Below are positions 40,156 through 58,670 of a DNA stretch of 64,000 bases, piece after piece (position 1 is the stretch's first letter; every line of letters begins with the position of its first letter). The notes beneath the pieces were generated by a model. The model saw only the letters and a list, made by a program, of their open reading frames with translations, had not been told where the DNA came from and made no database searches. The DNA is from an uncultured Bacilli bacterium (GTDB lineage Bacteria; Bacillota_I; Bacilli_A; ML615J-28; CAG-698): the NCBI GenBank assembly GCA_947627195.1, contig CANQVC010000003.1, forward strand, positions 9,871 to 73,870, given 5' to 3'. Position numbers and translations under genes: made by a program.

Positions 40156-41136
40156 CTATTTCATTCCTGAATGTGCCATTGTTTCCATAACTTGTGATTG
40201 AGAAATAACAAACACAACAATTGGAATAATAATCATAATTAAACTTACAGCAGCAAGTGTTCCTTGTCTTGCAGCACCAGCTGTCGCAATTTGACTTAAA
40301 GCATAACTTACCATCTTGAAATCTTCACGATAGATTGTTGTGGAACCTGAGTTTGCCCACAAACTTTGGAATAGTAAGATTATTAATGTAACCCACGCAG
40401 GTTTAACAAGTGGCATTACAATTGTCCAATAAATTCTAAATTCACTAGCGCCATCTATTTTAGCTGCTTCTATTAAACTTGTTGGTATTTGTTCCATGAA
40501 TTGTTTCATTAAGAATAATCCCATTGAATAAGCAAAGGCAGGTAAAATAATTGACCAATATGAATCAATCAAATGTAACCAATTTAATACCATATAGTTT
40601 GGAATAGCTGTTACTGATGATGGGAACATCAATGAATAAACAACAAGACCAAATATTAATGCACCACCTGGTACTTTATATTTTGCAAGTGGATAAGCAC
40701 ACATTGAAGCAATTATTACATGTCCAAATGTTCCAAGAATTGTTACAAAAATAGTATTGAAGAAGTAACGACTAAATGGAACAAGTGATGAGCCTAAGGC
40801 GTTTGCTAAATCAGAAAAGTTATCAAGAGTTGGGTTCTTTACAAAAAATCTTGGAGGGTATAGGAAAATTTCATCTAGAGGTTTAAAAGCATTTGATACT
40901 GTTAAAACTAAAGGTAAAATACTTAATATACCAAATAATGCTAAAAAGACAAATAAGGCAATATCTCCACGAAGAGAACGGTTAACTCTTTTTCTTTTCT
41001 TTGAACGCATTTGAACTTTTAAATCACTGATTTCGGCGAAAGGACGGGAATCAATTTTTTTCGACTTACGTTCATTACGGTCAAGCTTTTGCTTTTTTTC
41101 TTTTTTCTCTTTCTTCTCTTTAGCCACCCTAATCAC
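40156..41136 (-). CDS. Carbohydrate ABC permease (MalG-like)
   Basis: IEAAKIDGA EAA loop. Confidence 0.9.
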   Translation of the reverse strand: MIRVAKEKKEKKEKKQKLDRNERKSKKIDSRPFAEISDLKVQMRSKKRKRVNRSLRGDIALFVFLALFGILSILPLVLTVSNAFKPLDEIFLYPPRFFVKNPTLDNFSDLANALGSSLVPFSRYFFNTIFVTILGTFGHVIIASMCAYPLAKYKVPGGALIFGLVVYSLMFPSSVTAIPNYMVLNWLHLIDSYWSIILPAFAYSMGLFLMKQFMEQIPTSLIEAAKIDGASEFRIYWTIVMPLVKPAWVTLIILLFQSLWANSGSTTIYREDFKMVSYALSQIATAGAARQGTLAAVSLIMIIIPIVVFVISQSQVMETMAHSGMK

Positions 41137-42124
41137 CCAACTTTCTAATAATCTTTTGAATTAATTTGTTCAATAAAATTGATGCGACAAACAATATCGT
41201 TGCAATAGCTGATGCATAACCCATTTCAAAACGTAAACTACCATAATCTGTTAAGTGGTTTACAATTGTATGACCAGCATAAGATACTGAAGGGAAACCA
41301 GCTAAAGATGTTGTAATAGAACCTACTCCTAAAGCAGAAGATATTTGAATAACGGCACTAAACATTAGTTGTGGTTTTAATTGTGGTAAAGTAATATACC
41401 ATAATTCTTGCCAACGATTCTTTACTCCATCGACAGCTGCTGCTTCATATAGTGTTTTATCTACACCTTTTAAACCAGCTATTAATGCTAAGAAGTTAAC
41501 ACCTAAACTCATCCATAATTGAACAATAATTACGATTGGTAAAATGTATTTCGCATTTGTTAACCAAGTAATTGGTTGAGAAATAAATCCCCATGACATT
41601 AAGAACGAGTTAGCATATCCATACATATCACTTGAGAATATTAATGTCCAAATAGTAATGGCATTTCCTGAAAGAGATGGTGCATAGAAAACTAAGGTCA
41701 TGATGGTTCTTAATTTACCAGGTAATTCATTAATTAACCATGCCATAACAAATGACATTAAATAACCAAGTGGTCCACATATAACTGCTATAATTAATGT
41801 ATTCTTAACAGCTGTTATAAATATTTCATCATCTAAAAATAAAGTTAAATAGTTTTTAAATCCTAACCATGAAGGAGCTTCTAACATATTAAAGTAGGTG
41901 AAACTTAAGCAGAAACTCATAACTACAGGAACGACTGTAAATAATGTAAATAGAATAACATAAGGTAACATCATTAAATATAATGTTCTATTTAAATATA
42001 ATTTACGTCTTAATGGTTTTTTTCTACTCCAATGGTCGATTTTAATACCAGTTCGATGTTTCCAATCTAAGAATTGGTGCCATTTTTCTTTGAACCAGTT
42101 TTCTTTTTTTACTGTTTCTTCCAT
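41129..42124 (-). CDS. Carbohydrate ABC permease (MalF-like)
   Basis: LYEAAAVDG EAA loop, MGYASA. Confidence 0.9.
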   Translation of the reverse strand: MEETVKKENWFKEKWHQFLDWKHRTGIKIDHWSRKKPLRRKLYLNRTLYLMMLPYVILFTLFTVVPVVMSFCLSFTYFNMLEAPSWLGFKNYLTLFLDDEIFITAVKNTLIIAVICGPLGYLMSFVMAWLINELPGKLRTIMTLVFYAPSLSGNAITIWTLIFSSDMYGYANSFLMSWGFISQPITWLTNAKYILPIVIIVQLWMSLGVNFLALIAGLKGVDKTLYEAAAVDGVKNRWQELWYITLPQLKPQLMFSAVIQISSALGVGSITTSLAGFPSVSYAGHTIVNHLTDYGSLRFEMGYASAIATILFVASILLNKLIQKIIRKLGD

Positions 42125-42134
42125 TATTTTCCTC

Positions 42135-45100
42135 CTACTTCTTTGCTGCTTTCGTTGATGTTGCTAAACCAAATTCTTCACGTTTTCTGTCAATTTCACT
42201 ATTGATTGTTAAGATGTAATCAGATAATGTTTGACGTGGGTTTTCGTTATTATTAACAACATAACGGAATGCATTTTCAAGGTTACGTCCAGTATAATAT
42301 CCACCAGCAACTTCTGGAACACCAATTGTTTGTTCCCATTGATCTAACAATACGGCTTGTTCTTTTGTCGTCCATGATAAACGTTTAAATGCTTCAACAT
42401 TTGCAGTATTATGACGAGCTGCAGCTCCTAAAATTGCTTCAATTTCACGAGCATATCCAGCTTGTGTATCAGCACTTGTGAACCATTGCATGAACTTCCA
42501 TGATTCAAATGGTACATCTGTTTGTTTCATCATTATTAATGCTGTACCACTTGCAGCACCTAAATAATCAATTTCACCATTTTCTTTTTCAATACCAGGA
42601 AGTAATGCAAAATCCCATTTACCACGAATTTCTGGTGCAGAAACAGCTAATGTATTATAAATATCATAATTAACAATACCAATTGGTGTTTCACCACTAC
42701 GGAAACGGTTAACGAAACTTGCTTGAAGTGGGAAACTATAATCAGTATAGAAACTAGTCCAAAATTCGAATGCTCTCATTGCAGCTTCAGAATCAAAATT
42801 TGATTCAACATATTCTTCACCAAATTCATTAATAGATGTTCTATAAAATGCTGATTCTCTAGCATTATCAACTGATTGATATAAATATGATGCAAATATT
42901 TGGTTAACAACACTTGATGAACCTACTGTATTCAATGGTAAATAACATTCAAAATGTTGAATCTGTAATTCAGGAATTAAATTGATTAAATTATCCCAAG
43001 TTCTTGGAACTGACCAATCATATTCTTCAAACATATCAGTACGATAGAATAATACTAAGAAACTTTGAGTATATGGAAGAGCATAATAACCACCTTCAAA
43101 TTCATATGGTACCATCGCACTTTGTTTGAACCACATTGTTTCTTCATTTAAGGCAATTTCTTCAAATGAAGGGACATTATTATAACCAATTTCATCTAAT
43201 GCAGATCTTGAGAAAGTTGTTAAATCAAATGTAGCACCACGTAAAGCATAATTTACAGGAGTACCATTTGCTACGTTAATTGCAACATCTGGACCACGCC
43301 CTGCAAGTGTTGCCGTTAATAATACATCTGGAGAAACAACTTTTAGACTTACATTAACTCCATTTAATACACTATTAGGATTACTTCTTTCTTCATTAAT
43401 CATACTACTAATTGCATTAGCTTGTTCACGTCCTTGGTTTTCACTAGTTAATAGCCATACATCTACATCTTTCCATTCACTATTAGCTTCAGTCAAACCA
43501 ACACTTTCATAATCATAGAAGAATGATAAAACAAATCCTTTAATATTAAACCATAGACTACCAAAGGCATTTGGATTTGCTTTTGGAAGTTTGTAATCAG
43601 AACTATGAACTACAAGATAATCAATTGATAAAGCTTGTTGACTTACATCTAGAATCCATGTTCCTAATGAAGAAATATTTGTACTAAAATCAGATAGATT
43701 TTTTTGAATTTTATAATGATCTTTAATAAATTGTTTTAATTGAACTGACATTGTTTCAAGTGATGCTGTTTCACTACTCTTTTCTCCAGAAATTTCAGTA
43801 ATTTTTTTGGAAACATCAGTTAATGTATCAACAGCTTCTTGGAATTTTTCTTTTGCTTCAGCAATGAATTCTTTTCCACTGTCACCACCAAAATAATTAA
43901 TGTATGGGTCAGGATTAATACCAGTCTTTTGAATGATACGACGATATAATTTATTTAAATCATCAATGACATATTGAACACGACTAATTTGTGTTGCATA
44001 ATCACCTAAAGTACATTCTAATGTAATTGTATGTTTTCCTTTAGTTAGGTAGAATAAGAATGCTTCTTTATCAGTACCTAATGTAACGATACTCCAGTCA
44101 CTATTGTAAACAAATTTACAATTTTGTGCTTCTGCAAAAGGTGTTTCACCATCAATAGCAAGTTTTCTTGTTGAGAATAATCCACGGGAAACATTTTGTT
44201 TACAACGAAGTGATATTTCATACATGCCTTCTTCTTGAACTTCAAAGTCCCATGTAATCCAATCACCTGGTGTACTCCATTTAGCACCACCAATTGTATT
44301 TAATACTAATTTAACTGGTGATGATTTTGTTTTATTATGGTTTTCATCAATACAAACATTATATGCACTTGTTCTATCAGATACAGCATAAATTGTTGAA
44401 GAAGATCTAACAACATTAGTTGTACGACCATCTTCTTCAGGTCCACCTTCACCTTGAATTTGATATGCTACTTTACCACTAACAACTGGTTTACCTTGAT
44501 ATTGTGCTTTGTATTCTTCATATGAAATATATTTTTCAATACTTGTAACAAATACTTTAGAAACTAACATATTTTCACGAATTGATTCAATACCAATTGT
44601 ATGAGCACCAGCTGTAAAATAAATCATATATGGTTCTGTCACATATCCAACTTGATCATATACATATGAAGCTCTTAATTCAGGTTTTTCAACTTGTTTT
44701 GGTTTAATTTCATTTCCAGCTAAATCGACTAATTTACTACTTCCATCAGTAAATATTCTTTGGAATGCAACATTTGATAAATCGCTATATGGTATTTCTC
44801 CATCTATTTCAATTGCACGTTCAATATTAGCACCACCACTTGGTTCACCATCAGGATATACTTCTTCAGTTGATGGCATATATTCTAACAATAAATTATA
44901 AAAACCATTTTCAGGAATAACAACATCATAAATTAATTTTCCTAATGTTCCACTATAATTATAACTAACTTCATTAATTGTATGTGTAGCTCCTGTTGTA
45001 GTATCAAGTCCACTATTAGCATCTTGAGTTAATGTTGCATTATATTCAGCAGGAATTGCTTTATTTTCACCATTAACAACATAAGGATGATTTTCTGGGA

Positions 45101-45302
45101 AATTTTGTGGATAACTTTCCACATATTCTTTGTATTCACCACTTAATTCACTACCTCTAAGTGGAGTTGAATTAGACAATTTATGTCCACTACCAAAGCT
45201 TTGAATAACAACAACAAGAAGAAAAACAAATACAGCAACGCCTATAGCAATTAACGCTATTCTTTTTATCATCTTGCTCGATATTTTAATTTTGCGTTTC
45301 AT
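42135..45302 (-). CDS. Giant solute-binding protein with N-terminal CBM-like domains
   Basis: N-terminal TM; two beta-sandwich-like repeats; helical linker; C-terminal family-1 SBP (GPDV, LFYRTD, WDFALLPG); start set at ATG 45302 after GAAGGAGG. Confidence 0.8.
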   Translation of the reverse strand: MKRKIKISSKMIKRIALIAIGVAVFVFLLVVVIQSFGSGHKLSNSTPLRGSELSGEYKEYVESYPQNFPENHPYVVNGENKAIPAEYNATLTQDANSGLDTTTGATHTINEVSYNYSGTLGKLIYDVVIPENGFYNLLLEYMPSTEEVYPDGEPSGGANIERAIEIDGEIPYSDLSNVAFQRIFTDGSSKLVDLAGNEIKPKQVEKPELRASYVYDQVGYVTEPYMIYFTAGAHTIGIESIRENMLVSKVFVTSIEKYISYEEYKAQYQGKPVVSGKVAYQIQGEGGPEEDGRTTNVVRSSSTIYAVSDRTSAYNVCIDENHNKTKSSPVKLVLNTIGGAKWSTPGDWITWDFEVQEEGMYEISLRCKQNVSRGLFSTRKLAIDGETPFAEAQNCKFVYNSDWSIVTLGTDKEAFLFYLTKGKHTITLECTLGDYATQISRVQYVIDDLNKLYRRIIQKTGINPDPYINYFGGDSGKEFIAEAKEKFQEAVDTLTDVSKKITEISGEKSSETASLETMSVQLKQFIKDHYKIQKNLSDFSTNISSLGTWILDVSQQALSIDYLVVHSSDYKLPKANPNAFGSLWFNIKGFVLSFFYDYESVGLTEANSEWKDVDVWLLTSENQGREQANAISSMINEERSNPNSVLNGVNVSLKVVSPDVLLTATLAGRGPDVAINVANGTPVNYALRGATFDLTTFSRSALDEIGYNNVPSFEEIALNEETMWFKQSAMVPYEFEGGYYALPYTQSFLVLFYRTDMFEEYDWSVPRTWDNLINLIPELQIQHFECYLPLNTVGSSSVVNQIFASYLYQSVDNARESAFYRTSINEFGEEYVESNFDSEAAMRAFEFWTSFYTDYSFPLQASFVNRFRSGETPIGIVNYDIYNTLAVSAPEIRGKWDFALLPGIEKENGEIDYLGAASGTALIMMKQTDVPFESWKFMQWFTSADTQAGYAREIEAILGAAARHNTANVEAFKRLSWTTKEQAVLLDQWEQTIGVPEVAGGYYTGRNLENAFRYVVNNNENPRQTLSDYILTINSEIDRKREEFGLATSTKAAKK

Positions 45303-47139
45303 GAGCTCCTCCTTCATAAAAATCTAAACTCTTTATAGCAAATTCTTTCAGTTTTTCTAAATTTAAAATAGTTTTATCTAAACCACTATATTTATTACGA
45401 ATTAACCAAATTCTTTTTAATTCCAATATTAATCCATCTATCGAACCAATTGCTTCTTTTAGACAAGCAAGGCGATATTCGATATCAACTTTTGGTTGAT
45501 GAGCTAGACTAACTTTCATAATTGTTTTTAAAACATTAATTGAATGAATAATTTCATCTTTAACTAATGAATCAACATCAGCAAATGATAATTCTTTACA
45601 TTTTTGTTCAAAGAAATCATTCAATAAAATAAATTCTTCTAAACTTAAATAATTATATTTCATTTTAGAAGTGAAATATTGAATTGGATCTTTTTCTTTT
45701 AAAGCATTTAATGCCCAAACCATTGAATAAAATGTTACACTACCATTACCTGTATAATGTGGTTCATATTTAAAATATGTACCAATATCCATCAATATAT
45801 CAGAAATTAATTCTTTGGAATCATGGAAGATATAATGATTTAAATAATATTTTAAATCTTTATAAGTTCCTTCTTTACAACGATAACTTAATAAACCAGC
45901 ATAAGCTAAAGGAGCAAATGAAATTGGTAAATGTTGCAAATGACCAACATCTCCCCAATCAGTAAGAATAACTCCCATTCCACCTAATTTATAAATATCC
46001 CAAACAGCATTATTAATTGTTTCTAACCAGTCTTGAGTTCGACCTAATAATGTGCACCATGTAGTAGTTCCTGGAGCAGCCATAAATTTAACCCCAGCAT
46101 TTTTTAATTTTGATAAATGATCGTAGAAAGGATATTCAGCATCATATCCCCAATCAACAAATATCATATCTTTAGGAATTTTTGATAAGACATTGTCATG
46201 ACGAATAAGAACATCTCCCCAAATTAATGGTGTTTTATGATATTTCTTTATTTCTTCATATGCTTTTATTGTATAATCTAAATATACATTTTCTTCGCCA
46301 TATTTTTCACATTCTTCTTTAGATTTATCTTTTCCTAATTCGAATGGTTCATCAAAATTCATATGAAAATAAGATGATTTAAAATGAGGGAGCATATCGT
46401 GATACATTTTTTTAACTAATTCAATTGACTTTTCATCTAAAGGATTTAAAGTACTAGGTTTCCGATGTGAGCCCCATAAATCAATTCCATTAGGTGCTTC
46501 AGCAAGTTCTTTAAATTCATCTTTTTCAAGCCAATCAGTCATATGTCCAAATCCATTTTGATTTGGTACAAAATCTATTTCGTGTAATAAAGCATAATCT
46601 TCAATTTCATGATATTCATCAAGACTTAAATATGAATCTTTTTCTAGATATTGTTTAAATGATTTATATTCAAAACTAAATCCTTCAACATATAATTCTA
46701 AATGATTCATTTTTAAATCACTCATTATATCAATAATTTTCTTTACAGTTTCTACCTTTGGCACTTTATTACGACTAATATCGTAAGTAAATCCTCTAAT
46801 TTCAATATCAGGACCATCTTCAATATGAACACATTTCATAAAAGGGTGATATATCTGTTTTAACGTTTTCACAGCATAATAAAAACCACTATTACTATTA
46901 GCATATATTGTAATTTTGTTTGGTTCAATATCAAGTTCGTAATATTGATCTTTTAAAGATTTTTTTGTTATTAATAAAAAGTTGCTTTCCTCTTTAGATA
47001 CTTGTTTATATTTTATAAATTCATTTAATTCTTGTATAACAGATTTTATGTTTATATCAAAGTAAATAAAGAATTCTGTTATATTTAATTCACCAAGTAA
47101 ATCCTTTTGAATTTTTACTCTAGGGTAAATGAGATACAT
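45286..47139 (-). CDS. GH20 beta-N-acetylhexosaminidase
   Basis: RGFTYDISR, GH, HMNFDE catalytic pair, WGD, TDWGD; no signal peptide. Confidence 0.88.
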   Translation of the reverse strand: MYLIYPRVKIQKDLLGELNITEFFIYFDINIKSVIQELNEFIKYKQVSKEESNFLLITKKSLKDQYYELDIEPNKITIYANSNSGFYYAVKTLKQIYHPFMKCVHIEDGPDIEIRGFTYDISRNKVPKVETVKKIIDIMSDLKMNHLELYVEGFSFEYKSFKQYLEKDSYLSLDEYHEIEDYALLHEIDFVPNQNGFGHMTDWLEKDEFKELAEAPNGIDLWGSHRKPSTLNPLDEKSIELVKKMYHDMLPHFKSSYFHMNFDEPFELGKDKSKEECEKYGEENVYLDYTIKAYEEIKKYHKTPLIWGDVLIRHDNVLSKIPKDMIFVDWGYDAEYPFYDHLSKLKNAGVKFMAAPGTTTWCTLLGRTQDWLETINNAVWDIYKLGGMGVILTDWGDVGHLQHLPISFAPLAYAGLLSYRCKEGTYKDLKYYLNHYIFHDSKELISDILMDIGTYFKYEPHYTGNGSVTFYSMVWALNALKEKDPIQYFTSKMKYNYLSLEEFILLNDFFEQKCKELSFADVDSLVKDEIIHSINVLKTIMKVSLAHQPKVDIEYRLACLKEAIGSIDGLILELKRIWLIRNKYSGLDKTILNLEKLKEFAIKSLDFYEGGAHETQN

Positions 47140-47153
47140 GATTCCTCCTTTCT

Positions 47154-47617: not shown

Positions 47618-47717
47618 ATGTGCAATGTGCACATTTTTATTTTTTGTTTAAGATATAATAAAAAAATAATTAATTAAAAATTTCCTACTTATAAATATAA
47701 TAAAAAAGCTGATAATG

Positions 47718-48335
47718 TCATTTAAGATCATTATCAACTTTATTACTTTCTAACAAAGAATATTTACATCCACAATATTCTTGACGGTATAAATTATATT
47801 TTTTCGATAATTGAATAGATTTTTTATATCCTTCTTTTTTCTTAAAATTGGAATAGAAAAAAGGAATATCATAAACTTTAGAAAAATGTTCACCAAGTTC
47901 ATTTATCCAATCACTATTTTTATAAGGGCTAATTGAAAGAGTTGTTGTGAAAAAATCATAACCTAATCTTTTAGCTTCTTTAGCTGTTTCTTCTAAACGG
48001 AAGCTATAACAACAATAACATCTTTTACTTCCTTCTTTTAAATGTTCAAACCCTAATATAGCATTATCATATCTAAGTGGGTCATACTTTCCCTCGATGA
48101 ATTTAAATTCTAGAGGAATCTTTTTAAATTGTTCTTTTCTTTTATCATATTCTTCTTTAGGAAAAATATTAGGATTATCATAAAAAATAGTAATTGCAAA
48201 ATATTTATTTAAAATGTCCAATACTTCAGTAGAACAAGGTGCACAACAAGCATGAATTAATATTTTAGGTTTAGGATTTTGTGGTTCTGATTTAAGAAAT
48301 TCAGTATAAGCTAAATAGCTATCAACTTTAAACAT
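47718..48335 (-). CDS. queH: Epoxyqueuosine reductase QueH (DUF208)
   Basis: HACCAPCS, NPNI, RC..C...RL, YRQEYCGC. Confidence 0.92.
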   Translation of the reverse strand: MFKVDSYLAYTEFLKSEPQNPKPKILIHACCAPCSTEVLDILNKYFAITIFYDNPNIFPKEEYDKRKEQFKKIPLEFKFIEGKYDPLRYDNAILGFEHLKEGSKRCYCCYSFRLEETAKEAKRLGYDFFTTTLSISPYKNSDWINELGEHFSKVYDIPFFYSNFKKKEGYKKSIQLSKKYNLYRQEYCGCKYSLLESNKVDNDLK

Positions 48336-48336
48336 T

Positions 48337-49662
48337 TTAATAAGGTTTTACATCCTTTGTCCAAGCTTTTAATAATAATTCTCTAGCTTTAACTAATGTT
48401 GGTTTATCATTTTTAACAAAGTCATGATATGTAAAGAAAACACATCCTTTAACATTTTCATATAAATCATTAACTTTCAATTGGTTAATTATTTCTTCAG
48501 GATTTCCCCAATTGCCATGATCAGTATAACGATAAATTCCTTGACCAATATATAATTTAACATTAGTCTTTTTTGCTGCCCAACTCCACCAATCAACTAA
48601 ATCAGCATATTTCACAATTTCAATTGTTTTGCCATCTTCTGCTACTTTAAAACTATCTAAGGAAAAATAATCTTGAGGAACAACATAATCTATCCAACCT
48701 TTTTCCATCCATAGATATATATCAGCATATAATCCTTCATAACATTGGAAACATGAATGATGATTATGTGAGCCATATTCCCATCCGCCTTCTTTACCAG
48801 CTTCAGCGAAATGACTAGAATGAGTACGATAAATACCAAATGGACTAATACCAAATTCTACTTTATGATCTAACGTATTTAACGCATCATGAATTTTCTT
48901 AATCATGGTATTAACATTTTCTCTTCTAAAATCATCTAAAGAAAGTTCAGGGTGTAATGCTTGATGTTTTTTTTCTTCAAGTGGATCACTAATTGGATCA
49001 TATGGATAAAAATAATCATCGATATGAATAGCTTTAATTGGATATTTTTTCGCAATTTCTAATACTGTATCAACAAGATAATCTTGAACTTTCGAACTAG
49101 CTGGATCTAATATTAATTTATGTTCAGATGTTTCAATAACACAATCAGGATATTTACGAGCAAAATTTTTAGGACTTAATTTTTCTTGTAAGAATTGTTC
49201 TTTTGTCATGTTAATTTCATTTAATTTTGTACCTCTAACACGATAAGGATTCATCCATGCATGTACATCAATTTCAGCTTCTTTTGCTTTATTAACAAAA
49301 TAACCAAATAAATCAAATCCAGGATCTTCATCTTCAGTTTTTGTCTTACTTAAATAACAACTCCATGGATTAATATCTGATTGGTAAAAGGCATCACATC
49401 CTGGACGTACTTGAAATACAACAGTATTTAAATGATATTTTTTACAAGTTTTAATGACATCATCCATTTGTTCTTTGTATTCTTCAATAGAATCACAAGG
49501 ATGTATATCAATATTTTCCACAGTAGAAAACCAAACACCTCTAGTTTCTTGCTTTTTTTCTTTCACATTTTCGTTAATCATGACAGGTTTATCAGTACCA
49601 TAATATGTAATAAATCCTTCACGTTCAACACATTCAATTTTCTTCATCATTATTCTCCTCAT
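48337..49662 (-). CDS. GHL10 (YddW/DigH-like) glycosyl hydrolase, cytoplasmic
   Basis: RGVW, FQVRP, HAWMNPYR, HIDDYFYP, FGISPFG, DYVVPQ. Confidence 0.85.
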   Translation of the reverse strand: MRRIMMKKIECVEREGFITYYGTDKPVMINENVKEKKQETRGVWFSTVENIDIHPCDSIEEYKEQMDDVIKTCKKYHLNTVVFQVRPGCDAFYQSDINPWSCYLSKTKTEDEDPGFDLFGYFVNKAKEAEIDVHAWMNPYRVRGTKLNEINMTKEQFLQEKLSPKNFARKYPDCVIETSEHKLILDPASSKVQDYLVDTVLEIAKKYPIKAIHIDDYFYPYDPISDPLEEKKHQALHPELSLDDFRRENVNTMIKKIHDALNTLDHKVEFGISPFGIYRTHSSHFAEAGKEGGWEYGSHNHHSCFQCYEGLYADIYLWMEKGWIDYVVPQDYFSLDSFKVAEDGKTIEIVKYADLVDWWSWAAKKTNVKLYIGQGIYRYTDHGNWGNPEEIINQLKVNDLYENVKGCVFFTYHDFVKNDKPTLVKARELLLKAWTKDVKPY

Positions 49663-50593
49663 ATAATTCTTCTAAAATTGTTATTTCTTGTTTATTAGCA
49701 TCTAATCTTACTTTTAAGCCAATTGGTAAATTAATAAAAGGAAATTGATGACCAGATGCAAAATGATAAATAACAGGTTTATTTAAATTTTGAAAATATT
49801 CTTGAATTAATTCATCAACTTCAGGTTCATCATCATCTTTATGACAATTTGTGAAATGTCCAAAGATAAATCCTTTAGCTTCATCAAGATATCCCCCTAA
49901 TCTTAATTGAGCAAACATCCGATCAATATTATATGGTTGTTCATCAACTTCTTCAATAAAAACAATTTTATCTTTAAAATCAATTTCATAAGGAGTACCT
50001 ATCAAATCGGATATTAAACATAAGTTGCCACCACTCATTTCTCCTTCAACAATTCCTCCACATAATGTTTTAGCATCATTATAAGGATTTTTTAAAACAC
50101 GGTTTAAAGTGTTAGTTGTCAATAATGTTTTAAATTCATTTAAGGAAAATTCATCACATTTAGGACTTGATATAAATATTCCAACTTGTCCATGAACCGT
50201 TGGTAAATAACTATATTTATATAAATTATTTAATAATACAGTAATATCACTAAATCCCATAAATAATTTAGGATGTTTTTTAATCATTTCATAATCTATT
50301 TTATCAACAATTCTACTTGCTCCACAGCCACCTTTATAACATATAATAGCTTTTATATTAGGATCTAAAAACATTTGATGAATGTCATTTATTCTTTCTT
50401 CATCATTTCCTGCTAAATAGCCATGTTGTAAATAACATGTTTTGCCAAATTGAACATTATAACCAAAAGAAGAAAAAATATCTTCAATTTTTTTCATTCT
50501 TTCTTGTTGTTTATTTCTTGAAGAAGGGCAAATAAAACCAATTGTATCCCCTTTCTTCAACATTCTTACTTGACATTTATTCATATTAATCAC
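49634..50593 (-). CDS. ldcA: S66 LD-carboxypeptidase
   Basis: GFSDIT, GGNL, FIEEVDE, SGH triad motifs. Confidence 0.9.
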   Translation of the reverse strand: MINMNKCQVRMLKKGDTIGFICPSSRNKQQERMKKIEDIFSSFGYNVQFGKTCYLQHGYLAGNDEERINDIHQMFLDPNIKAIICYKGGCGASRIVDKIDYEMIKKHPKLFMGFSDITVLLNNLYKYSYLPTVHGQVGIFISSPKCDEFSLNEFKTLLTTNTLNRVLKNPYNDAKTLCGGIVEGEMSGGNLCLISDLIGTPYEIDFKDKIVFIEEVDEQPYNIDRMFAQLRLGGYLDEAKGFIFGHFTNCHKDDDEPEVDELIQEYFQNLNKPVIYHFASGHQFPFINLPIGLKVRLDANKQEITILEELYEENNDEEN

Positions 50594-51284
50594 TAAATGA
50601 ATTAGGTTTTACAGTAAATTTGCCATAATCTTGGACATTAAATGCTTGAGCATGTTCACATTTAGCTAAGCATCCACGAACATAAGTTAAATGAGTATAA
50701 TAATTATAATATTTAAAATCTTTACTGTTCATAATAAACCAATGTTTAGCAATAGCTTTTGTCCATAAATCATAACCTTCAGAACAATTAACTAAAATAT
50801 ATGGATCAAATCCTATTCTATCTTCCCAGTTTTCACAGAAATATACTGGAGAATACCATCTTTCAAGAGGTACTTTATCCCCCATATCAATGCCTGCATA
50901 AAATTGAGCATCAACTACAATTTTAGAACATGTTGCATGATCTTTATGCATACTATTTTTCCAATGAGTGAAAATTGCATTTGGACGATATTTACGAATT
51001 AAAGCTGCAACTTGTAATCTAACTTCATCATTATCAGGAAGTTCACCATCACAATAAGGGAATACAATTGATTCACCATTTAACATTTCCGCAAATTCTT
51101 TTGCTTCTTTTACTTTTTGCACACGATATTCTTCAACAGTCATTGTTTTGGGATTTCCTCTTTCACCTGCTGTTAAAGCAACAGTAATAATTCTATCACC
51201 TATTAATGCTTGTGTAGCTAATACACAACCACATGTTAACTCCATATCACCGATATGTCCACCAATTGCCATAAATGTTTTCAT
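50586..51284 (-). CDS. PIG-L/LmbE family de-N-acetylase
   Basis: GHIGDME variant of HPDDE, TAGE, HKDH. Confidence 0.8.
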   Translation of the reverse strand: MKTFMAIGGHIGDMELTCGCVLATQALIGDRIITVALTAGERGNPKTMTVEEYRVQKVKEAKEFAEMLNGESIVFPYCDGELPDNDEVRLQVAALIRKYRPNAIFTHWKNSMHKDHATCSKIVVDAQFYAGIDMGDKVPLERWYSPVYFCENWEDRIGFDPYILVNCSEGYDLWTKAIAKHWFIMNSKDFKYYNYYTHLTYVRGCLAKCEHAQAFNVQDYGKFTVKPNSFSD

Positions 51285-51314
51285 TTTTTAATTCTCCTTT
51301 TTTATATTTATTTT

Positions 51315-52370
51315 TTATTCAAACATTGTATCTAAATGAGTAAAGATATAATTTGCTAATCTTGCTCTGAATGGAATAATTTTATTATTTTGTCTTGTAG
51401 GATGTACACGGTTACTTAAAACGCAATATGCTACTTTATTTTGACGATCAATGACAATATTAGTGCCAGTAAAACCTGTATGCATAATCGTTTCATCACT
51501 AGCAAATTCTCCACAACAACATTGTTTTCCTTTCACAATCCAACCTATTCCTCTTCGATATGTATCTAAACTAATTCCTTCTTTTTCTTCTACTTGGGGT
51601 TTAAAGAATAAATCGATACTTTGTTTAGACAATATTCTTTTTCCTTTGTACATACCATTATCTAAAATCATTTTAAGAAAATGACTTAAATCTTTAACAC
51701 AACTGAATAAACCAGCATGGCCTGCAACACCATCTAATGTATGAGCAACTTCATCATGAACATAGCCACGATCTATTTTGTCACCTCTATCTTCAGTAGG
51801 GGCACATCTATTTACATCAGTTGGACAATACCCTGAATCAAACATTTCTAAAGGTTCAAGCAAGTTCTCTTTCACAAACTTATCTAATGGCATATTACTT
51901 ACTTTTTCAATAATCCATCCAAGTAAAATAAATCCTAAATCAGAATAAACCATTTTAGTGTTTTTTTCATATTCCTTTTCACAACTCATGATATTATCAT
52001 ATAATTCTTGTTTGGACAAGAAATGTCCATTTATTAAATCAGCTGGTAAACCAGAAGTATGAGTTAATAAATCCCATATTGTAACATCTTTATGAATAAA
52101 ATCAGGAAGAAATACTGATACATAATCATATAAACGAATCAATCCTCTTTCAGCTAACATCATTATTGAACTTGTTGTGGCAACAACTTTTGTACATGAT
52201 GCCATATCATAAAGAGTATTAATATCATTATCTTCTTCAACTGGATATAAACTCTTTTTGCCATATGCATGAAAATAAGTTTTGTCATTAATTATTAAAC
52301 ATAATGTTGCTCCAGGAAATACTCCATCTTTAACTGCTTTAGTCATTATTTCATTAACTTTTTCAATCAT
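51315..52370 (-). CDS. Beta-lactamase-fold serine hydrolase (AmiE-like)
   Basis: SCTK, LLTHTSG, YSD, GHAGLFS, HTGFTG. Confidence 0.8.
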   Translation of the reverse strand: MIEKVNEIMTKAVKDGVFPGATLCLIINDKTYFHAYGKKSLYPVEEDNDINTLYDMASCTKVVATTSSIMMLAERGLIRLYDYVSVFLPDFIHKDVTIWDLLTHTSGLPADLINGHFLSKQELYDNIMSCEKEYEKNTKMVYSDLGFILLGWIIEKVSNMPLDKFVKENLLEPLEMFDSGYCPTDVNRCAPTEDRGDKIDRGYVHDEVAHTLDGVAGHAGLFSCVKDLSHFLKMILDNGMYKGKRILSKQSIDLFFKPQVEEKEGISLDTYRRGIGWIVKGKQCCCGEFASDETIMHTGFTGTNIVIDRQNKVAYCVLSNRVHPTRQNNKIIPFRARLANYIFTHLDTMFE

Positions 52371-52378
52371 ATTGCCTC

Positions 52379-54583
52379 CTAATCTTCTGATGTCATAACT
52401 ATCTTATCATGATAACGACGATAGAAATTTTGGTAACATATTTTATCAATATCTTCTTCACTTAATCCTATTTTTTGCATTCCTTCTATAATACGATAAG
52501 CAAATGTTGCATCTTTTACTTCTTCTAAATTACTATTAGGAAAATCAGATAAATAATCCATAAAATCAAATCCAAAGCACACATTATCAACGCCCATAAT
52601 AGAAATAGCATATTTTAAATGTTCTAAAAAGCGATCTAATGTTTGATTGTTTTCATCTTTATCAACAAAATTATTAGCTAATGTCAATCCTAATAAACCA
52701 TCAACTTTCTTTAAAGCTTTCATTTGATCATCAGTGACATTTCTAACATGAGAACATAATTTCTTTACATTTCCATGGGAATAAATAATATTTTTATTAA
52801 CTACTTTTAAAGCATCATAAAAACTTTTTTCGTTTAGATGAGCTAAATCAATAATCATTCCTAATTGTTCCATTCTTTTTAGTAGACGAATTCCTTCTTC
52901 AGTAAAGCCTCTTTCAGGATTAGATTTAGCTCCTGTTGCATATTTATTTTCTTCATTCCATGTTACCATAGCATGACGAAATCCCATATTGTATAAAATA
53001 TCAATATCTTCAACACATTTTAAATTTCTTAAGCCTTCTAGTCCTAATACTACTTTAAAATTGGCAAGTTCTTTTAAATTGATTTCTTTTAATGCTATTT
53101 TACATGCTTCAATTAAGTCAAAGTCATTTGGTGAATACATTGTAAATATACTACCTTTAATAACACTTTGTGATAATTGTGGGACATGATATTTTTCAAA
53201 ACGATGATCAATTCCTTTTGTTTTGTTTGTCCATAAATCATATAACATATCACTATGACAATCAAACATACGTTTTATCGGAGTAGAAATCATTGTTCGA
53301 CATAAATCTTCATATTCTTCACGACGGATTGTTAAATGGACATGATCATTATTAACAAAAATAACAGCTCCACGTACCATGCCATTGTAATTTGAACTCA
53401 TAGAATAACCATATGCTCCAGTACAATATGTAACTAAAACATCATTTTCTTTAACTTTTGTTAATGGATAATCAGTAACAATAATATCCCCAGATTCACA
53501 GCATGGTCCAACTACATCAACAATTTCTTTATCTTGAATATTTTCATCAACATGATTAGCTATATCAACACTATATTTGGCTTGATATAAAGCAGGGCGA
53601 ATATTATCAGTCATTCCGCCATCAACGAAAACATATTTTTTACCTCCATATGTTTTCTTTGTTCCACCAACTGTATATAATGTGAAGCCAGCATCACCAA
53701 CAATACTTCGACCAGGTTCAATCATGACTTTTTTTAAACTTAAATGATATTTATCAATAAATGAATCAATAGTATTAGTAATGGCTTTAACCATTGATGC
53801 TAAATCTATTTCAGTATCTTCATTAGTATATTGAATGCCAAATCCTCCACCAAGATTTAAAACTTCAAATGAACAATTATTTCTTTCTTCTACATCTTTC
53901 ATGAAATTTAAAAGGGTACTTGTGGCATCTTGAAAACTTTTAGGTTGATGAATATTCGAACCAATATGACTATGAAAACCTAATAATGTTAAATATTGGC
54001 TTTCATTTGCTTTTTTAACTATTTTATCAATTTTATCTTTATCAAAAATTGATTCACCAAACTTACTACTTAATAAAGATGTTTGAATATATTCATGAGT
54101 ATGAGCACTAATACCAGGATTAACGCGTAATAAAATGGATACTTTAGTATTTTCTTCTTGAGCAATCTTTTCTAACTCTTCTATTTCTTCTAAATGGTCA
54201 ACAACAATATAACCAACATGATGTTTAATTGCATATTTTAATTCACTTGTCGTTTTATTGTTTCCATGTAAAACTACTTTTTCCATTGGAAATCCACTAC
54301 GATTAATTATGTATAAATCTCCTTCACTTACACTATCTAATCCCATACCATATTCATGTATTATTTGCATCATATATGGACATAAAAAAGCTTTAGTAGC
54401 ATAAACTGTCATACATTCATATTTATTACTTTGAAAATTTTCTTTTAAAACATCTAATTTATGACGAATGTGTTTTTCATCATAAACATATAATGGTGTT
54501 TTATATCTAGTTGCTAATTCTTGCAATTTAAATGAACCAACATATAATTCATTATTTTGAACTTTCATAGAGATTGTTCTCAT
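52379..54583 (-). CDS. lysA: Diaminopimelate decarboxylase fused to M19 metallo-dipeptidase
   Basis: N-half YATKAF, HSHIGS, EPGR, CESGD, GAYG; C-half DCHSD, LEG, DLAH, YSHGN, RN, GFDF. Confidence 0.9.
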   Translation of the reverse strand: MRTISMKVQNNELYVGSFKLQELATRYKTPLYVYDEKHIRHKLDVLKENFQSNKYECMTVYATKAFLCPYMMQIIHEYGMGLDSVSEGDLYIINRSGFPMEKVVLHGNNKTTSELKYAIKHHVGYIVVDHLEEIEELEKIAQEENTKVSILLRVNPGISAHTHEYIQTSLLSSKFGESIFDKDKIDKIVKKANESQYLTLLGFHSHIGSNIHQPKSFQDATSTLLNFMKDVEERNNCSFEVLNLGGGFGIQYTNEDTEIDLASMVKAITNTIDSFIDKYHLSLKKVMIEPGRSIVGDAGFTLYTVGGTKKTYGGKKYVFVDGGMTDNIRPALYQAKYSVDIANHVDENIQDKEIVDVVGPCCESGDIIVTDYPLTKVKENDVLVTYCTGAYGYSMSSNYNGMVRGAVIFVNNDHVHLTIRREEYEDLCRTMISTPIKRMFDCHSDMLYDLWTNKTKGIDHRFEKYHVPQLSQSVIKGSIFTMYSPNDFDLIEACKIALKEINLKELANFKVVLGLEGLRNLKCVEDIDILYNMGFRHAMVTWNEENKYATGAKSNPERGFTEEGIRLLKRMEQLGMIIDLAHLNEKSFYDALKVVNKNIIYSHGNVKKLCSHVRNVTDDQMKALKKVDGLLGLTLANNFVDKDENNQTLDRFLEHLKYAISIMGVDNVCFGFDFMDYLSDFPNSNLEEVKDATFAYRIIEGMQKIGLSEEDIDKICYQNFYRRYHDKIVMTSED

Positions 54584-54621
54584 TATAAATCACTCTCCTA
54601 GTTTTTATTATATCATATTTA

Positions 54622-55593
54622 TTAGTAATTGTTAATCAAATCATTTGTAAGATTATTAATTAAATCTAAAAATTCATCTTTTGTATGAACATACATAAGT
54701 TTTGTTTTAAATTCTTTAGCATTTGCCATTCCTTTAACATACCAAGCTGCTAATGTTCTCATTTCTAAAACTGCTATTTTTTCAGTCTTTAATTCAACTA
54801 AATCTAAAAAATGTTTTTTAAGAACATTTAGTTTTTCCATATTTGTTGGTGGAGTATATAAAACGTTTTGTAAATGACATTGAAATTCTTTAAATATCCA
54901 AGGATTACCTAATGATGCTCTACCAATCATTACAGCATCTACTCCTGTCTTTAACATATTATCTAAATCATCAGTTGTCTTAATATCACCATTACCAATA
55001 ACAGGAATATTGACACTTTCCTTGACTTTTTTAATAATATCTAAAGATGCAGAGCCATGGTATAAATCACTTTTGGTTCTACCATGAATGGTAATACCAC
55101 TAGCGCCAGCTTCCTCCATGGCTTTGGCCATTTCAACACAATTAATACTTTGATGATCCCATCCTGTTCTCATTTTTACTGTTACTGGTTTAGCTATATT
55201 ATTAACTATTTTATTAACAATTTCTTTGGCATGAGAAATGTTTTTCATTAAATAAGATCCACTTTCAGCTTTAATGACTTTTTTAACAGGGCAACCCATA
55301 TTTATATCAATAATATCACAATTAGTTCTTTTTTCAATTTCTTTAGAAGCTTTAACCATTTCATCAATATTGGAACCAAATAATTGAATACTAACTGGAT
55401 GTTCATTTTCATCTATTTTACACATTTCCCATGTTTTATCATTTTCATATAATAATCCTTTATCACTTATCATTTCTGATGTTGTTAATGAAGCACCATA
55501 TTGATGACATAATAAACGATATACTTGATTAGTATATCCTGCCATTGGGGCTAATACTAATTTACCTTGAATATTAACATTACCAATTTTCAT
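54622..55593 (-). CDS. dusB: tRNA-dihydrouridine synthase
   Basis: LAPMAG, DINMGCP, IHGRT, GNGDI, MIGR. Confidence 0.92.
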   Translation of the reverse strand: MKIGNVNIQGKLVLAPMAGYTNQVYRLLCHQYGASLTTSEMISDKGLLYENDKTWEMCKIDENEHPVSIQLFGSNIDEMVKASKEIEKRTNCDIIDINMGCPVKKVIKAESGSYLMKNISHAKEIVNKIVNNIAKPVTVKMRTGWDHQSINCVEMAKAMEEAGASGITIHGRTKSDLYHGSASLDIIKKVKESVNIPVIGNGDIKTTDDLDNMLKTGVDAVMIGRASLGNPWIFKEFQCHLQNVLYTPPTNMEKLNVLKKHFLDLVELKTEKIAVLEMRTLAAWYVKGMANAKEFKTKLMYVHTKDEFLDLINNLTNDLINNY

Positions 55594-55607
55594 TTTAACA
55601 CCTATAA

Positions 55608-57164
55608 TTATAATAACAATATTGTTGCTAATAAGAAATATGTAGCAATTGCTATCATATCATTTAATGTTGTAATAAGAGGACCACTAGCAGCAGTTGG
55701 ATCTATATGAATCATGTTAAAGAATATTGGCATTAAACTACCAAATAAACTTGAAAGAGACATTGATAAAAAGATTGAAACAGCAACAATTAAGGAAATC
55801 ATCCAAATTGGATTGTTATCTTTAGATGATATTAGTAAATATAAATATACGACAATAAATGAACCTATTCCTAAAAAGAATCCTAATGATATACCATTTC
55901 TTAGTTCTTTTAAAATATATATTATTTTTTGTTTTTTGGTTTGAATCAGTTGACTAGAAATATTTCTAACACAAATAGCTAAACTTTGCGTACCAACATT
56001 TCCAGCTAATCCTAAAACAATTGGTTGAAATAATACTAATATTGTAGCTTTATTAATCATATTTTCAAATGAAGATATGACTAAACAAACAAATATATCT
56101 AATATACATAAAATTAATAACCAAGAAATACGTCTCTTTAATTTAGAAAAAATACTTTCTTCTGATTCATGTTCACCACTTAAACCAGCTAATTGATTAT
56201 ATTCTTCTTCTCTTGTTTCATGTAAGGCTCTAAATGCATCATCAATAGTAATAATTCCTTCAATTTGTCCATTCTTTAATACAGGAAGTGAATATATATC
56301 ATAATCATTAACAATAGAAACTACTTTTTCAACTGTATCGTCAACTTCAACTCTTTTACAATTTTCATTTGTAATATCTTTTACTAAACAAGGAGATTTA
56401 GTAACTATTAACTTTTTAAAATCTAATACACCAATAAATTTATGATCAAGTGATACAAATAAAGGATTAATATTTTCTACTTCTTTAGCTTTTTGTAATA
56501 ATATTTTCATCGCTTCTTTAACATCCATCATTCCATCTAATAAAATAAAATTAGTATCCATGATAGAACCTGCTTCATCATCAGAATATTTCGCTAATTC
56601 AGTTAATTCCTGTTTTGCTTCTTCATCCATTAAATTTAAATATTGTTCTTTATCATCTTGTTCTAATTCATTGATAATATCAACTGCATCATCAACATCA
56701 AGATTTTCTAAAACATCACTAGCTTTTTCTTGACTTAATTCAGTTATATAAATTGCAGCATCATCTTCTTCAAATTCACCAAAAATATCTGATAATTGTT
56801 CGATATTAAATAATTTATAAAAATGATTTCTTTTGTCTTCAGTCATTTCTTCTAAATATTTCGCAATATCTTTGGGATGCATTGATTTAATATTATCTTG
56901 AAATTGTTTAATATGTTCAATTGTTTTATTATCAACAATATGTAAATAATAATGATTTTTTAAAGAAGATAAAACATAATTTTTTCTTTCATCATTTAGA
57001 TATGATAAATATTCTTTTCTTTCTTGAAGATTATTTAAAAAGAATTGCCTTAATTCATAATTACTAAATGATTGCAATAATTCTTTTTTCTCTAGATCAG
57101 ATAATGAATTAATAAATTTATTTTGTTCTAATTCATTTTTCTTAAAAAATTCTTCTTTAATCAT
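55608..57164 (-). CDS. mgtE: Magnesium transporter MgtE with N-terminal extension
   Basis: CBS pair, GNVGTQS, DPTAASGPLITTLND. Confidence 0.9.
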   Translation of the reverse strand: MIKEEFFKKNELEQNKFINSLSDLEKKELLQSFSNYELRQFFLNNLQERKEYLSYLNDERKNYVLSSLKNHYYLHIVDNKTIEHIKQFQDNIKSMHPKDIAKYLEEMTEDKRNHFYKLFNIEQLSDIFGEFEEDDAAIYITELSQEKASDVLENLDVDDAVDIINELEQDDKEQYLNLMDEEAKQELTELAKYSDDEAGSIMDTNFILLDGMMDVKEAMKILLQKAKEVENINPLFVSLDHKFIGVLDFKKLIVTKSPCLVKDITNENCKRVEVDDTVEKVVSIVNDYDIYSLPVLKNGQIEGIITIDDAFRALHETREEEYNQLAGLSGEHESEESIFSKLKRRISWLLILCILDIFVCLVISSFENMINKATILVLFQPIVLGLAGNVGTQSLAICVRNISSQLIQTKKQKIIYILKELRNGISLGFFLGIGSFIVVYLYLLISSKDNNPIWMISLIVAVSIFLSMSLSSLFGSLMPIFFNMIHIDPTAASGPLITTLNDMIAIATYFLLATILLL

Positions 57165-58525
57165 TAAATGAATCCTCCAACAATTAATATTAAATATGCT
57201 AATGTATAATATATAACAACACCAAACATATCATTTAAAGTTGTAATAAATGGACCACTAGCTACAGCAGGATCAATATGAATTTTTTCTAAGAAAATAG
57301 GAACAATTGAGCCAATAAAATTAGATAATGTAATTGCTAGCATCATTGAAAGAGCAACCACTAAAGAAATCATGATAATTTTTCCATCAGTTTTCTTAAT
57401 TAACATAAATATATAAGTAATAATAAAACTACAGATTGCTAATAAAATACCACTTAATAAGCCAGATATAAATTCTTTTCTTAAATATTTGTGAATTATT
57501 TTTTTATTATTTAAATCACCTTTAGATATACTAACAACCGATGTTGCTAATGATTGAGTACCAGCATTTCCCCCCATATCTAAAATTAATGATTGAAAGA
57601 ATACTAAAGATGTAGCAACAGCAATAATTTCTTCAAAGAAGCCTAAGATTGTTGATACGAGGAAACTTAATAAAAGTAATATAAATAACCAAGGTAAACG
57701 AGAACGAAATATTGATAAAAATTCACCTTTGTTTTTACCACTTAAACCAGCTAATTTATCATAATCTTCTGTTACTTCTTCATCTAAATAATCAATTGCA
57801 TCATCAATGGTAATAATACCTACTAATTTATTATCATCTAAAACAGCAAGTACTGTTAAATGATATTCTTTTAAAAGAAAAACTGCGTCTTTGATATCAT
57901 CTTTGGCATTTATTGTTTTGAAATTTGTTATCATTATATTTTGAATATTTTCATCTTTATTGGCAACAATTAAATCTTTTAAAGAAACAATTCCTTTTAA
58001 ATGCTCATCTTCATCAACAATAAATAAATAATCAATTAATTCTTGTTCATTAGATTCTTTAATTAATTTTTTCATTACGTCTTTAGCAACCATTGGATTA
58101 TTTATACTAAAGAAATGATTATTCATAATTGAGCCAGCCATTGTTTCATCATATTTAGTTAATTCTTTTATATCCAAAAATGTGTCATCATCTAAATATT
58201 TTAAAACTTTATTTCGATTCTTATCATCTAATGCTTGAATGACATCTACTGCATCATCAGATTCCATGGCTGATAAAATTTCAGCACTATCATGTTCATC
58301 TAAATGTTCAATTATTGGTAATGTATCTTCAACATCTAAATAACTAATTATATCAGCAAATTCTAAAGGATTTAAAGCTTGTTTTATTTTTTCTTGTTGT
58401 TCTAAACTTAAATCCATAAATATATTAGCAATATCATACGGATGGTATTCGATAAGTTTATCATGCAATATTGATAAATTTTCTTCATTTAAATCTTCTA
58501 ATATTTGTTCATTAATATCAATCAT
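57164..58525 (-). CDS. mgtE: Magnesium transporter MgtE
   Basis: HPYDIA, CBS pair, GGNAGTQS, DPAVASGPFITTLND. Confidence 0.92.
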   Translation of the reverse strand: MIDINEQILEDLNEENLSILHDKLIEYHPYDIANIFMDLSLEQQEKIKQALNPLEFADIISYLDVEDTLPIIEHLDEHDSAEILSAMESDDAVDVIQALDDKNRNKVLKYLDDDTFLDIKELTKYDETMAGSIMNNHFFSINNPMVAKDVMKKLIKESNEQELIDYLFIVDEDEHLKGIVSLKDLIVANKDENIQNIMITNFKTINAKDDIKDAVFLLKEYHLTVLAVLDDNKLVGIITIDDAIDYLDEEVTEDYDKLAGLSGKNKGEFLSIFRSRLPWLFILLLLSFLVSTILGFFEEIIAVATSLVFFQSLILDMGGNAGTQSLATSVVSISKGDLNNKKIIHKYLRKEFISGLLSGILLAICSFIITYIFMLIKKTDGKIIMISLVVALSMMLAITLSNFIGSIVPIFLEKIHIDPAVASGPFITTLNDMFGVVIYYTLAYLILIVGGFI

Positions 58526-58670
58526 ATCAATACCTCCATTTCATGTAATTACTTATCATATTATACCATTTTATCCTTAGAAATAGAAGACAGAAATTAA
58601 AAATTTAAAAAATTCTACCTAACATTTGAATATTGCTTGGTAGAATATATTATTACATAATATTTAATGA

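Follow-up and report, generated by a model that had tools for sequence, protein, structure and literature searches.

A conserved LysA-M19 dipeptidase fusion in uncultured gut Bacilli and its probable role in lysine formation from peptidoglycan fragments

The fused gene and its two enzyme domains

The gene examined here lies in a window of 64,000 nucleotides with about 27% G+C, positions 9,871 to 73,870 of contig CANQVC010000003.1 (assembly GCA_947627195.1) from an uncultured Bacilli bacterium. A single open reading frame (ORF) on the minus strand encodes a protein of 734 amino acids (aa) in which the diaminopimelate decarboxylase LysA is followed by a dipeptidase of family M19. The ORF, Pfam and NCBIfam evidence bore out the single LysA-M19 frame of the initial annotation, which had read it as a salvage route from foreign meso-diaminopimelate (mDAP) to lysine. 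The ATG of the fused gene is at 54583-54581, and its parts and the signals ahead of it are as follows.

52379..54583, minus strand: fused LysA-M19 gene, 734 aa (Pfam, NCBIfam, conserved architecture)
53294..54583, minus strand: LysA (diaminopimelate decarboxylase) domain, aa 1-430 (TIGR01048, PF02784, PF00278, invariant residues)
53270..53293, minus strand: short linker, aa 431-438, with no Shine-Dalgarno sequence and no stop, from the lysA 3' end and the old M19 start region
52382..53269, minus strand: short W-type M19 dipeptidase domain, aa 439-734, about 296 aa (PF01244, GliJ match, model, alignments)
54593..54599, minus strand: Shine-Dalgarno sequence AGGAGAG of the fused gene (direct sequence reading)
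54607..54635, minus strand: promoter-like site TTAACA, 17 nt, TG-TATAAT, 11/12 (consensus match only)

The LysA half scored 444.8 bits with the NCBIfam model TIGR01048 (lysA), for which the cut-off is 297.9; the match spans aa 8-429 and model positions 4-414 of 417. Pfam matches on the fused protein were Orn_Arg_deC_N (PF02784, aa 38-295, 189.1 bits) and Orn_DAP_Arg_deC (PF00278, aa 32-389, 69.9 bits). This half, modelled confidently over aa 1-430, has the two-domain architecture of fold-type III enzymes, a pyridoxal 5'-phosphate (PLP) barrel followed by a C-terminal sheet domain. Across 60 fused homologues, 54-82% identical, the residues K64, H204, GGG245-247, EPGR289-292, R329, Y333, C362-E363 and Y391 were invariant, confirming the intact LysA motifs noted earlier; we take these to include the PLP-binding lysine and the substrate-binding positions. 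The assignment of the decarboxylase step, by family membership, is well founded.

The C-terminal half matched Peptidase_M19 (PF01244) at 202.3 bits against a gathering cut-off of 26, over aa 508-722 and profile positions 104-315 of 319 only. The N-terminal HxD motif of the family was found as H443/D445, and relatives matched profile positions 4-75 weakly and separately. Thus, the M19 domain is complete, yet about 30 profile positions short (roughly 76-103). A phmmer search of the PDB with this domain gave GliJ as the best match (1.4e-25). An AlphaFold model of aa 439-734 had a mean predicted local distance difference test (pLDDT) score of 96.2 and a predicted template modelling (pTM) score of 0.93, and its 20 best Foldseek matches in the PDB were all annotated as M19 dipeptidases or amidohydrolases (TMq 0.73-0.83). 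The modelled domain is therefore predicted to share the amidohydrolase (beta/alpha)8 fold with solved M19 enzymes.

Among the same 60 homologues, H443, D445, E516, H582, H603, R614 and D673 were invariant in the M19 half. All five ligands of a binuclear metal centre (H443, D445, E516, H582 and H603, assigned by DPEP1 numbering) are therefore present, and the E, H, H ligands aligned with their GliJ equivalents. The claim of an intact M19 domain held for these ligands, but not for the histidine of the T-H-N motif, which is replaced by W542 (codon 52960-52958), the 'LTHN' of GliJ aligning with 'VTWN'. This tryptophan was invariant in the 60 fused proteins and persisted in stand-alone homologues of as little as 31% identity; proteins joining a C26 domain to M19 read 'CHN', with histidine where the fused family has W542. 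Tryptophan at the THN position marks, in the alignments, a W-type M19 subfamily with the motif TWNE. The replaced histidine corresponds, presumably, to the catalytic H152 of human renal dipeptidase DPEP1. Two C26-M19 proteins (P0119 and P0120, 600-632 aa) join a gamma-glutamyl-hydrolase-like C26 domain to a canonical His-type M19 domain and represent another two-step peptide-trimming fusion.

A model of the full-length protein had a pLDDT of 90.5 but a pTM of only 0.62, with pLDDT falling to about 70 at the linker, which fits two well-folded domains whose mutual position the model does not fix. Prediction of a complex between the separate LysA and M19 parts (score 0.00, mark 0.32) gave no call and was neutral on docking or channelling. 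Substrate channelling between the domains is possible but unsupported; most likely, the fusion fixes 1:1 expression of the two enzymes.

Reality and origin of the fusion

A search with the M19 part among long proteins, clustered at 90% identity, returned 118 clusters with both M19 and LysA-type Pfam domains among the 120 matches listed, in agreement with the fusion reported initially. These 118 clusters were 56-100% identical in the M19 part and mostly 725-744 aa long; the remaining two were the C26-M19 proteins. Among the best 150 matches in a 50%-identity library of 1.84 billion representatives, one was fused, indicating that the fusion belongs to a single narrow clade. In a survey of the order (106 species genomes in families f1 and f2), M19 lay within frames of at least 700 aa in 26 genomes, and a contig-truncated frame in one further genome contained both parts, giving 27 of 106, all in family f1.

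The junction, taken as about 53267-53300, was crossed with 0 differences by Logan contigs from two studies (X3 record 10, 53237-53502; X5 record 23, 53096-53392), so that independent contigs support it. The sequencing runs holding the gene were rabbit-gut and gut metagenomes. As the initial annotation had stated for the internal Met near 53269, no GGAGG-like sequence was found in the 15 bases ahead of the internal ATG (53269-53267), and that Met was not conserved either. Since 118 clusters share the architecture and contigs of two studies bridge the junction, the fusion is genuine. An assembly or frameshift artefact joining two genes, a reading to which the separate genes of some relatives might have lent support, is refuted and its probability practically nil, given the same single frame in clusters from many assemblies, the recurrence in the order survey, the matching junction contigs and a junction that has neither stop, Shine-Dalgarno sequence nor conserved start.

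Separate lysA and M19 ORFs were found in 14 related loci. Their junctions read TAATG or ATGA, or the two genes were a few bases apart, and GGAGG lay within the last lysA codons. The M19 proteins of these split relatives begin MK(I/V)FD, where the window reads KRMFD and the fused-family consensus is KIFD; the window junction has thus lost the stop, the Shine-Dalgarno sequence and the start. Met439 is not the ancestral start, since it sits two codons past the old one and is not conserved. These comparisons trace the fusion to neighbouring lysA and M19 genes that overlapped and were coupled in translation.

A quick maximum-likelihood tree of 41 rows comprised 26 fused (window included) and 15 split ones (distant L047 included) and omitted the partial loci L030, L041 and L044 as well as L049-L084, which lack lysA. 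On this tree, the fused/split label needed four changes, at least two of which were forced by well-supported branches. Fusion or fission has therefore occurred more than once, and because the tree is unrooted it does not give the direction.

A conserved cluster for cell-wall fragments

The fused gene heads a cluster of genes on the same strand, separated by gaps of 8-38 bases or overlapping. After the fused gene, the window contains the following features.

51315..52370, minus strand: beta-lactamase-family serine hydrolase, PBP4B-like, without signal peptide (PF00144, 175.9 bits; NF002968 PBP4B, 2.2e-48, below cut-off)
50586..51284, minus strand: PIG-L/LmbE-family deacetylase or amidase (PF02585; PDB matches BshB and diacetylchitobiose deacetylase, about 1e-7)
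49634..50593, minus strand: LD-carboxypeptidase, S66, LdcA-like (PF02016 and PF17676; NF008424 muramoyltetrapeptide carboxypeptidase, 1.4e-40, below cut-off)
48337..49662, minus strand: GHL10 protein, Cwp19-like, cytoplasmic (PF02638; PDB 5oq2, C. difficile Cwp19, 6.3e-63; no signal peptide)
47718-48335, minus strand: QueH, epoxyqueuosine reductase, between GHL10 and GH20
45286..47139, minus strand: GH20 beta-N-acetylhexosaminidase-like protein, cytoplasmic (PF00728 and PF02838)
40156..45317, minus strand: ATP-binding cassette (ABC) importer, a membrane-anchored 1060-aa solute-binding protein and two permeases (PF13416/PF01547; PF00528 twice)

No signal peptide was found in any enzyme of the cluster. 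The 1060-aa binding protein has an N-terminal hydrophobic anchor, and the importer is kept in related loci. The PBP4B-like protein is a candidate muramoyl-L-alanine amidase or DD-peptidase; a PDB sequence search with it returned only esterases and Flp-type proteins (1e-14 to 1e-18) and did not bear out its presumed likeness to AmiE. The title of PMC6016235 describes Cwp19, the PDB match of the GHL10 protein, as a lytic transglycosylase.

The order of genes was conserved across 41 loci and 8 further cut-outs as Dus, LysA/M19, PBP4B-like, (tandem GNAT), (PIG-L), (LdcA), GHL10, (QueH), GH20, solute-binding protein and permeases. In the 41 loci (43-82% identity), lysA and M19 adjoined between Dus and the PBP4B-like gene, and the latter followed M19 directly in 41 of 41 (L006-L048 minus L030 and L047). 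MurQ, the etherase acting on N-acetylmuramic acid 6-phosphate, was found 4 kb ahead of the window, within the same contig (375.3 bits against a cut-off of 302; G000:C3:5109-5972). From the families encoded, this operon looks as if it serves the import and dismantling of other bacteria's cell-wall fragments.

The promoter-like site just upstream of the fused gene was the best on the minus strand in 46500-58800; because the consensus scan found 113 sites against 104 expected, it is weak by itself. No terminator-like site was found on that strand in the same interval by consensus scan.

Several further features of the cluster were recorded. QueH is embedded here and in many, but not all, relatives and has no obvious pathway link. 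In most relatives, a tandem-GNAT gene (about 325 aa; L014:13264-14262) separates the PBP4B-like gene from the PIG-L gene; it is absent between 51284 and 51315 of the window, and homologues of 36-40% identity are on contigs C67 and C10 of the same genome. M19, PIG-L and GNAT persist as a triad in the lysA-less Acholeplasmataceae loci L051, L052 and L054. Following the permeases, a 621-aa protein (38280-40145, minus strand) has a signal peptide, no Pfam or NCBIfam family and a single weak PDB match, the tetratricopeptide repeat protein MamA; it takes this position in all of the cut-out loci that extend far enough (7 of 7) and may assist the importer from outside the cell. The cluster is followed directly, on the minus strand, by a Yip1-domain membrane protein (37600-38280) and a 1142-aa DUF5696 protein (34158-37586).

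Diaminopimelate genes and the proposed lysine route

The genome that contains the window is 1.84 Mb in size and 98% complete. No match to dapA or dapB was found in it, in a search of the DAP route that did not extend to asd, lysC, dapL, ddh or dapD/H; this is consistent with the absence of dap genes that the salvage reading had proposed. The genes dapF (beside enolase), mraY and murE (with a DNPR motif) are present. The best match to the ligase Mpl (TIGR01081) scored 91.9 bits against a cut-off of 388.7, neither MpaA-type (M14, PF00246) nor YkfC-type (NlpC/P60, PF00877) peptidases were matched, and the only match to an L-Ala-D/L-Glu epimerase (MR_MLE) was a sub-threshold one of 26.9 bits inside the enolase gene. 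With the known families for gamma-D-Glu-mDAP and L-Ala-D-Glu missing, at least one of these steps needs a new enzyme, and within the cluster this could be the M19 domain or the PIG-L protein. A C26 gamma-glutamyl-hydrolase-like gene elsewhere in the genome adjoins a catalase fragment and nrdD and was set aside as having no link.

The same pattern extended through the order. Among its 106 genomes, counting matches over cut-off, lysA was present in 90 and dapF in 73, compared with dapA in 8 and dapB in 6; murE was found in 61, mraY in 56 and murA (at E <= 1e-30) in 65. Ten genera, comprising 28 genomes (G061, G066-G068, G071, G075-G080, G083-G092, G097-G102 and G017), had no murE, mraY or murA match. 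As neighbours, murE and mraY are not independent markers; murA, on other contigs, agrees with them. Of these 28 genomes, 23 had lysA over cut-off and 25 had M19, while dapA and dapB were over cut-off only in both g12 genomes, and 21 genomes with neither wall markers nor dapA/dapB retained LysA. The whole cluster was present in 8 of 8 loci cut from genomes of this group, fused in five and split in three. In such organisms, mDAP is conceivable from foreign peptidoglycan only. Sister genera, including that of the window, have murE, mraY and murA; walled and apparently wall-less lineages are thus interleaved in one order.

MurE itself was variable. At the 'DNPR' position of 31 frames, including that of the window's genome, DNPR occurred in 8, EDPR in 12, DNSR in 7 and others in 4; DNPR was therefore dropped as a marker of mDAP-type walls, and the wall chemotype of the order was not inferred. 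In family f2, a pair of MurE paralogues is encoded by many of the genomes (L090-L119).

LysA acts in nature on a substrate found mainly in peptidoglycan. Taken with the operon, the absence of dapA and dapB, and the retention of the gene in relatives that have no wall markers, this makes it probable that the fused gene specifies a cytoplasmic enzyme with two activities at the end of a pathway that uses peptidoglycan fragments, much as the salvage reading had suggested. Fragments would be imported by the neighbouring ABC importer and then trimmed by the GH20 enzyme, the Cwp19-like GHL10 protein, the PBP4B-like hydrolase and the LD-carboxypeptidase to small peptides containing D-amino acids. The M19 domain would cleave one such peptide, for which L-Ala-D-Glu (free or as the N-terminus of the tripeptide), mDAP-D-Ala and gamma-D-Glu-mDAP are candidates, and the LysA domain would decarboxylate the freed mDAP to L-lysine. 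As the organism has neither dapA nor dapB, this pathway would be its lysine route. Free mDAP may also supply its own MurE, and in this walled organism recycling of its own wall may have a share besides scavenging.

Sco3058 is reported to prefer L-D dipeptides. By their PDB titles, bacterial M19 enzymes of solved structure were crystallised with mimics of L-Xaa-D-Xaa, such as 3s2j with L-Leu-D-Ala. Such binding is compatible with L-Ala-D-Glu or mDAP-D-Ala as the substrate, or with release of L-Ala from the tripeptide, in which the alpha-carboxylate of D-Glu is free. Independent support for a link between W-type M19, LysA and stem-peptide catabolism came from the Clostridia metagenome-assembled genome (MAG) locus L047:163-7628, where a W-type M19 gene, an amino-acid permease, a Beta-lactamase2 protein, LysA, an M15 D-Ala-D-Ala dipeptidase and alanine racemase lie on one strand. 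This single case looks like a second, unrelated cluster for the use of stem-peptide amino acids.

Several observations weigh against the pathway as proposed. The binding protein of the importer is of sugar type (SBP_bac_1/8) rather than an Opp-type peptide binder, and the PBP4B-like, LdcA and GH20 matches were all below NCBIfam equivalog cut-offs. With W542 in place of the histidine that is catalytic in renal dipeptidase (H152), the M19 domain may act differently or more slowly. No RNA run was among the sequencing runs listed as holding the gene. Both dapA and dapB occur in six genomes of the order, two of which (G057 and G084) carry the fusion; genomes without these dap genes are thus not its only hosts. 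The lysA and M19 genes of the sister family f2 usually lie on different contigs, and the Acholeplasmataceae loci L051-L054 have M19 in the cluster without lysA, L053 reading Dus, M19, PBP4B-like and so on. The M19 step is thus not bound to lysine formation as such.

These last observations are also those expected if the fusion were accidental and not functionally coupled, with LysA, as simply the final enzyme of lysine biosynthesis, drawing on free DAP taken up from outside or on an unrecognised pathway, M19 acting as a general nutritional dipeptidase, and the two merged only through gene overlap. ATGA and TAATG junctions fuse by a single base change, and the repeated switching between fused and split states on the tree is in keeping with this. 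We nevertheless consider it unlikely, given that lysA and M19 stayed together between Dus and the PBP4B-like gene at identities as low as 43%, that the fusion is under purifying selection in the 118 clusters with both active sites invariant, that the Clostridia MAG associates the two enzymes independently, and that the missing gamma-D-Glu-DAP peptidase families and Ala-Glu epimerase leave a step for a new enzyme.

Alternatively, the operon could degrade an amino-sugar polymer or glycopeptide other than peptidoglycan, such as host mucin, N-glycan or chitin oligomers, with LysA as a passenger. GH20, the PIG-L deacetylase, the tandem GNAT of relatives and the sugar-type binding protein would suit such a role, as would weak matches to NgcE (a chitobiose-binding protein) and to an N-acetylglucosaminidase, and the diacetylchitobiose deacetylase among the PDB relatives of the PIG-L protein. 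This explanation is quite unlikely, however, since peptidoglycan is the only known source of substrates for LD-carboxypeptidase and LysA, the protein matched by GHL10, Cwp19, cleaves peptidoglycan, and MurQ is on the same contig. Further, a table in PMC13198582 on genes that bacterivorous ciliates acquired laterally places pbp4b, NamZ, nagB-PIGL and murQ in its group for amino sugar degradation, and lysA in that for amino acid degradation.

A third explanation takes the M19 domain to be a non-catalytic binding or regulatory module that delivers or senses a D-amino-acid peptide for LysA. The change of the THN histidine to tryptophan throughout the subfamily would agree with it, and PvdM provides a precedent as a non-hydrolytic M19 relative (PMC9305348). 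PvdM, however, has lost four of five zinc ligands according to the same paper, whereas all five, together with R614 and D673, were invariant in the 60 fused proteins here, and stand-alone members attached to no partner are common. A non-catalytic M19 domain is therefore highly unlikely.

The pathway of peptidoglycan-fragment breakdown through the fused enzyme may have a wider bearing. It is conceivable, although we hold it doubtful, that the whole order of small-genome, mostly uncultured gut Bacilli is without DAP synthesis and obtains lysine and, where a wall is still made, wall mDAP from the peptidoglycan of neighbours, that wall-less lineages keep the pathway for lysine, and that W-type M19 has a new specificity which opens L-Ala-gamma-D-Glu-mDAP in place of MpaA/YkfC or of YcjG and PepD, coupled to LysA so that mDAP would go straight to lysine. 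If the proposed route is correct, the lysine supply of widespread uncultured gut bacteria hangs on the walls of other bacteria; supplying muropeptides or DAP would be a hint for cultivation, and the cross-feeding link would be measurable. The fused M19 domain is a candidate for an unassigned step of stem-peptide breakdown in organisms that have no MpaA, YkfC or YcjG. The subfamily with the TWNE motif is now defined and offers a clear substrate panel, and the wall-less lineages that retain LysA and DapF without DAP synthesis represent a natural experiment.

Comparison with known systems

No paper on a LysA-M19 fusion or on DAP salvage in this clade was found in a literature search of partial coverage that reached few subscription journals, and no W-type M19 member with a tested substrate was found there. 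As in other LysA proteins (TIGR01048, fold-type III PLP enzymes), the PLP lysine and the conserved motifs are present and the score is far above cut-off. In contrast to ordinary LysA, the enzyme here is joined covalently to a peptidase and lies in a catabolic operon, not with dap genes, and in most genomes of the order lysA occurs without dapA and dapB. With the M19 family (DPEP1, Sco3058, Lmo2462, Rsp0802 and GliJ), the fused domain shares the amidohydrolase barrel and all ligands of the binuclear metal centre. It differs from canonical M19 in its length of about 296 aa, in 'TWNE' for 'THN' and in 'FGFDFMDY' for the canonical 'GxDFDG', where P0119 and P0120 read 'GTDFDG'.

The proposed pathway would follow the same logic as recycling in Escherichia coli (MppA-Opp, LdcA, MpaA, YcjG, PepD, LysA) and Bacillus subtilis (ykfABCD), namely import, trimming by LD-carboxypeptidase, release of mDAP and its use for wall or lysine. 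E. coli grows on murein tripeptide as a source of Dap via MppA, which was found through such growth (PMC3173086). B. subtilis degrades peptidoglycan by sequential exo-acting NagZ, AmiE and NamZ, with MurQ (PMC8054146). LD-carboxypeptidase, with both the N- and C-terminal S66 domains, and MurQ are present here as well. However, M14, NlpC/P60, the MR_MLE epimerase and Mpl were not found over cut-off in the present genome, which has instead a sugar-type importer, cytoplasmic glycan-degrading enzymes and a LysA fused to a dipeptidase.

Dependence on the wall fragments of neighbours has parallels in other phyla. Tannerella forsythia, an N-acetylmuramic acid auxotroph, is said to rely on cell-wall fragments from its neighbours. 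Fidelibacter multiformis IA91 depends on exogenous muropeptides, according to PMC11652737. Both differ from the present case in their genes, and the dependence proposed here would concern DAP and lysine only and reach lineages without wall genes. What is new here is the covalent LysA-M19 enzyme, a W-type M19 domain in this role, and the order-wide occurrence of lysA and dapF without dapA and dapB, wall-less lineages included.

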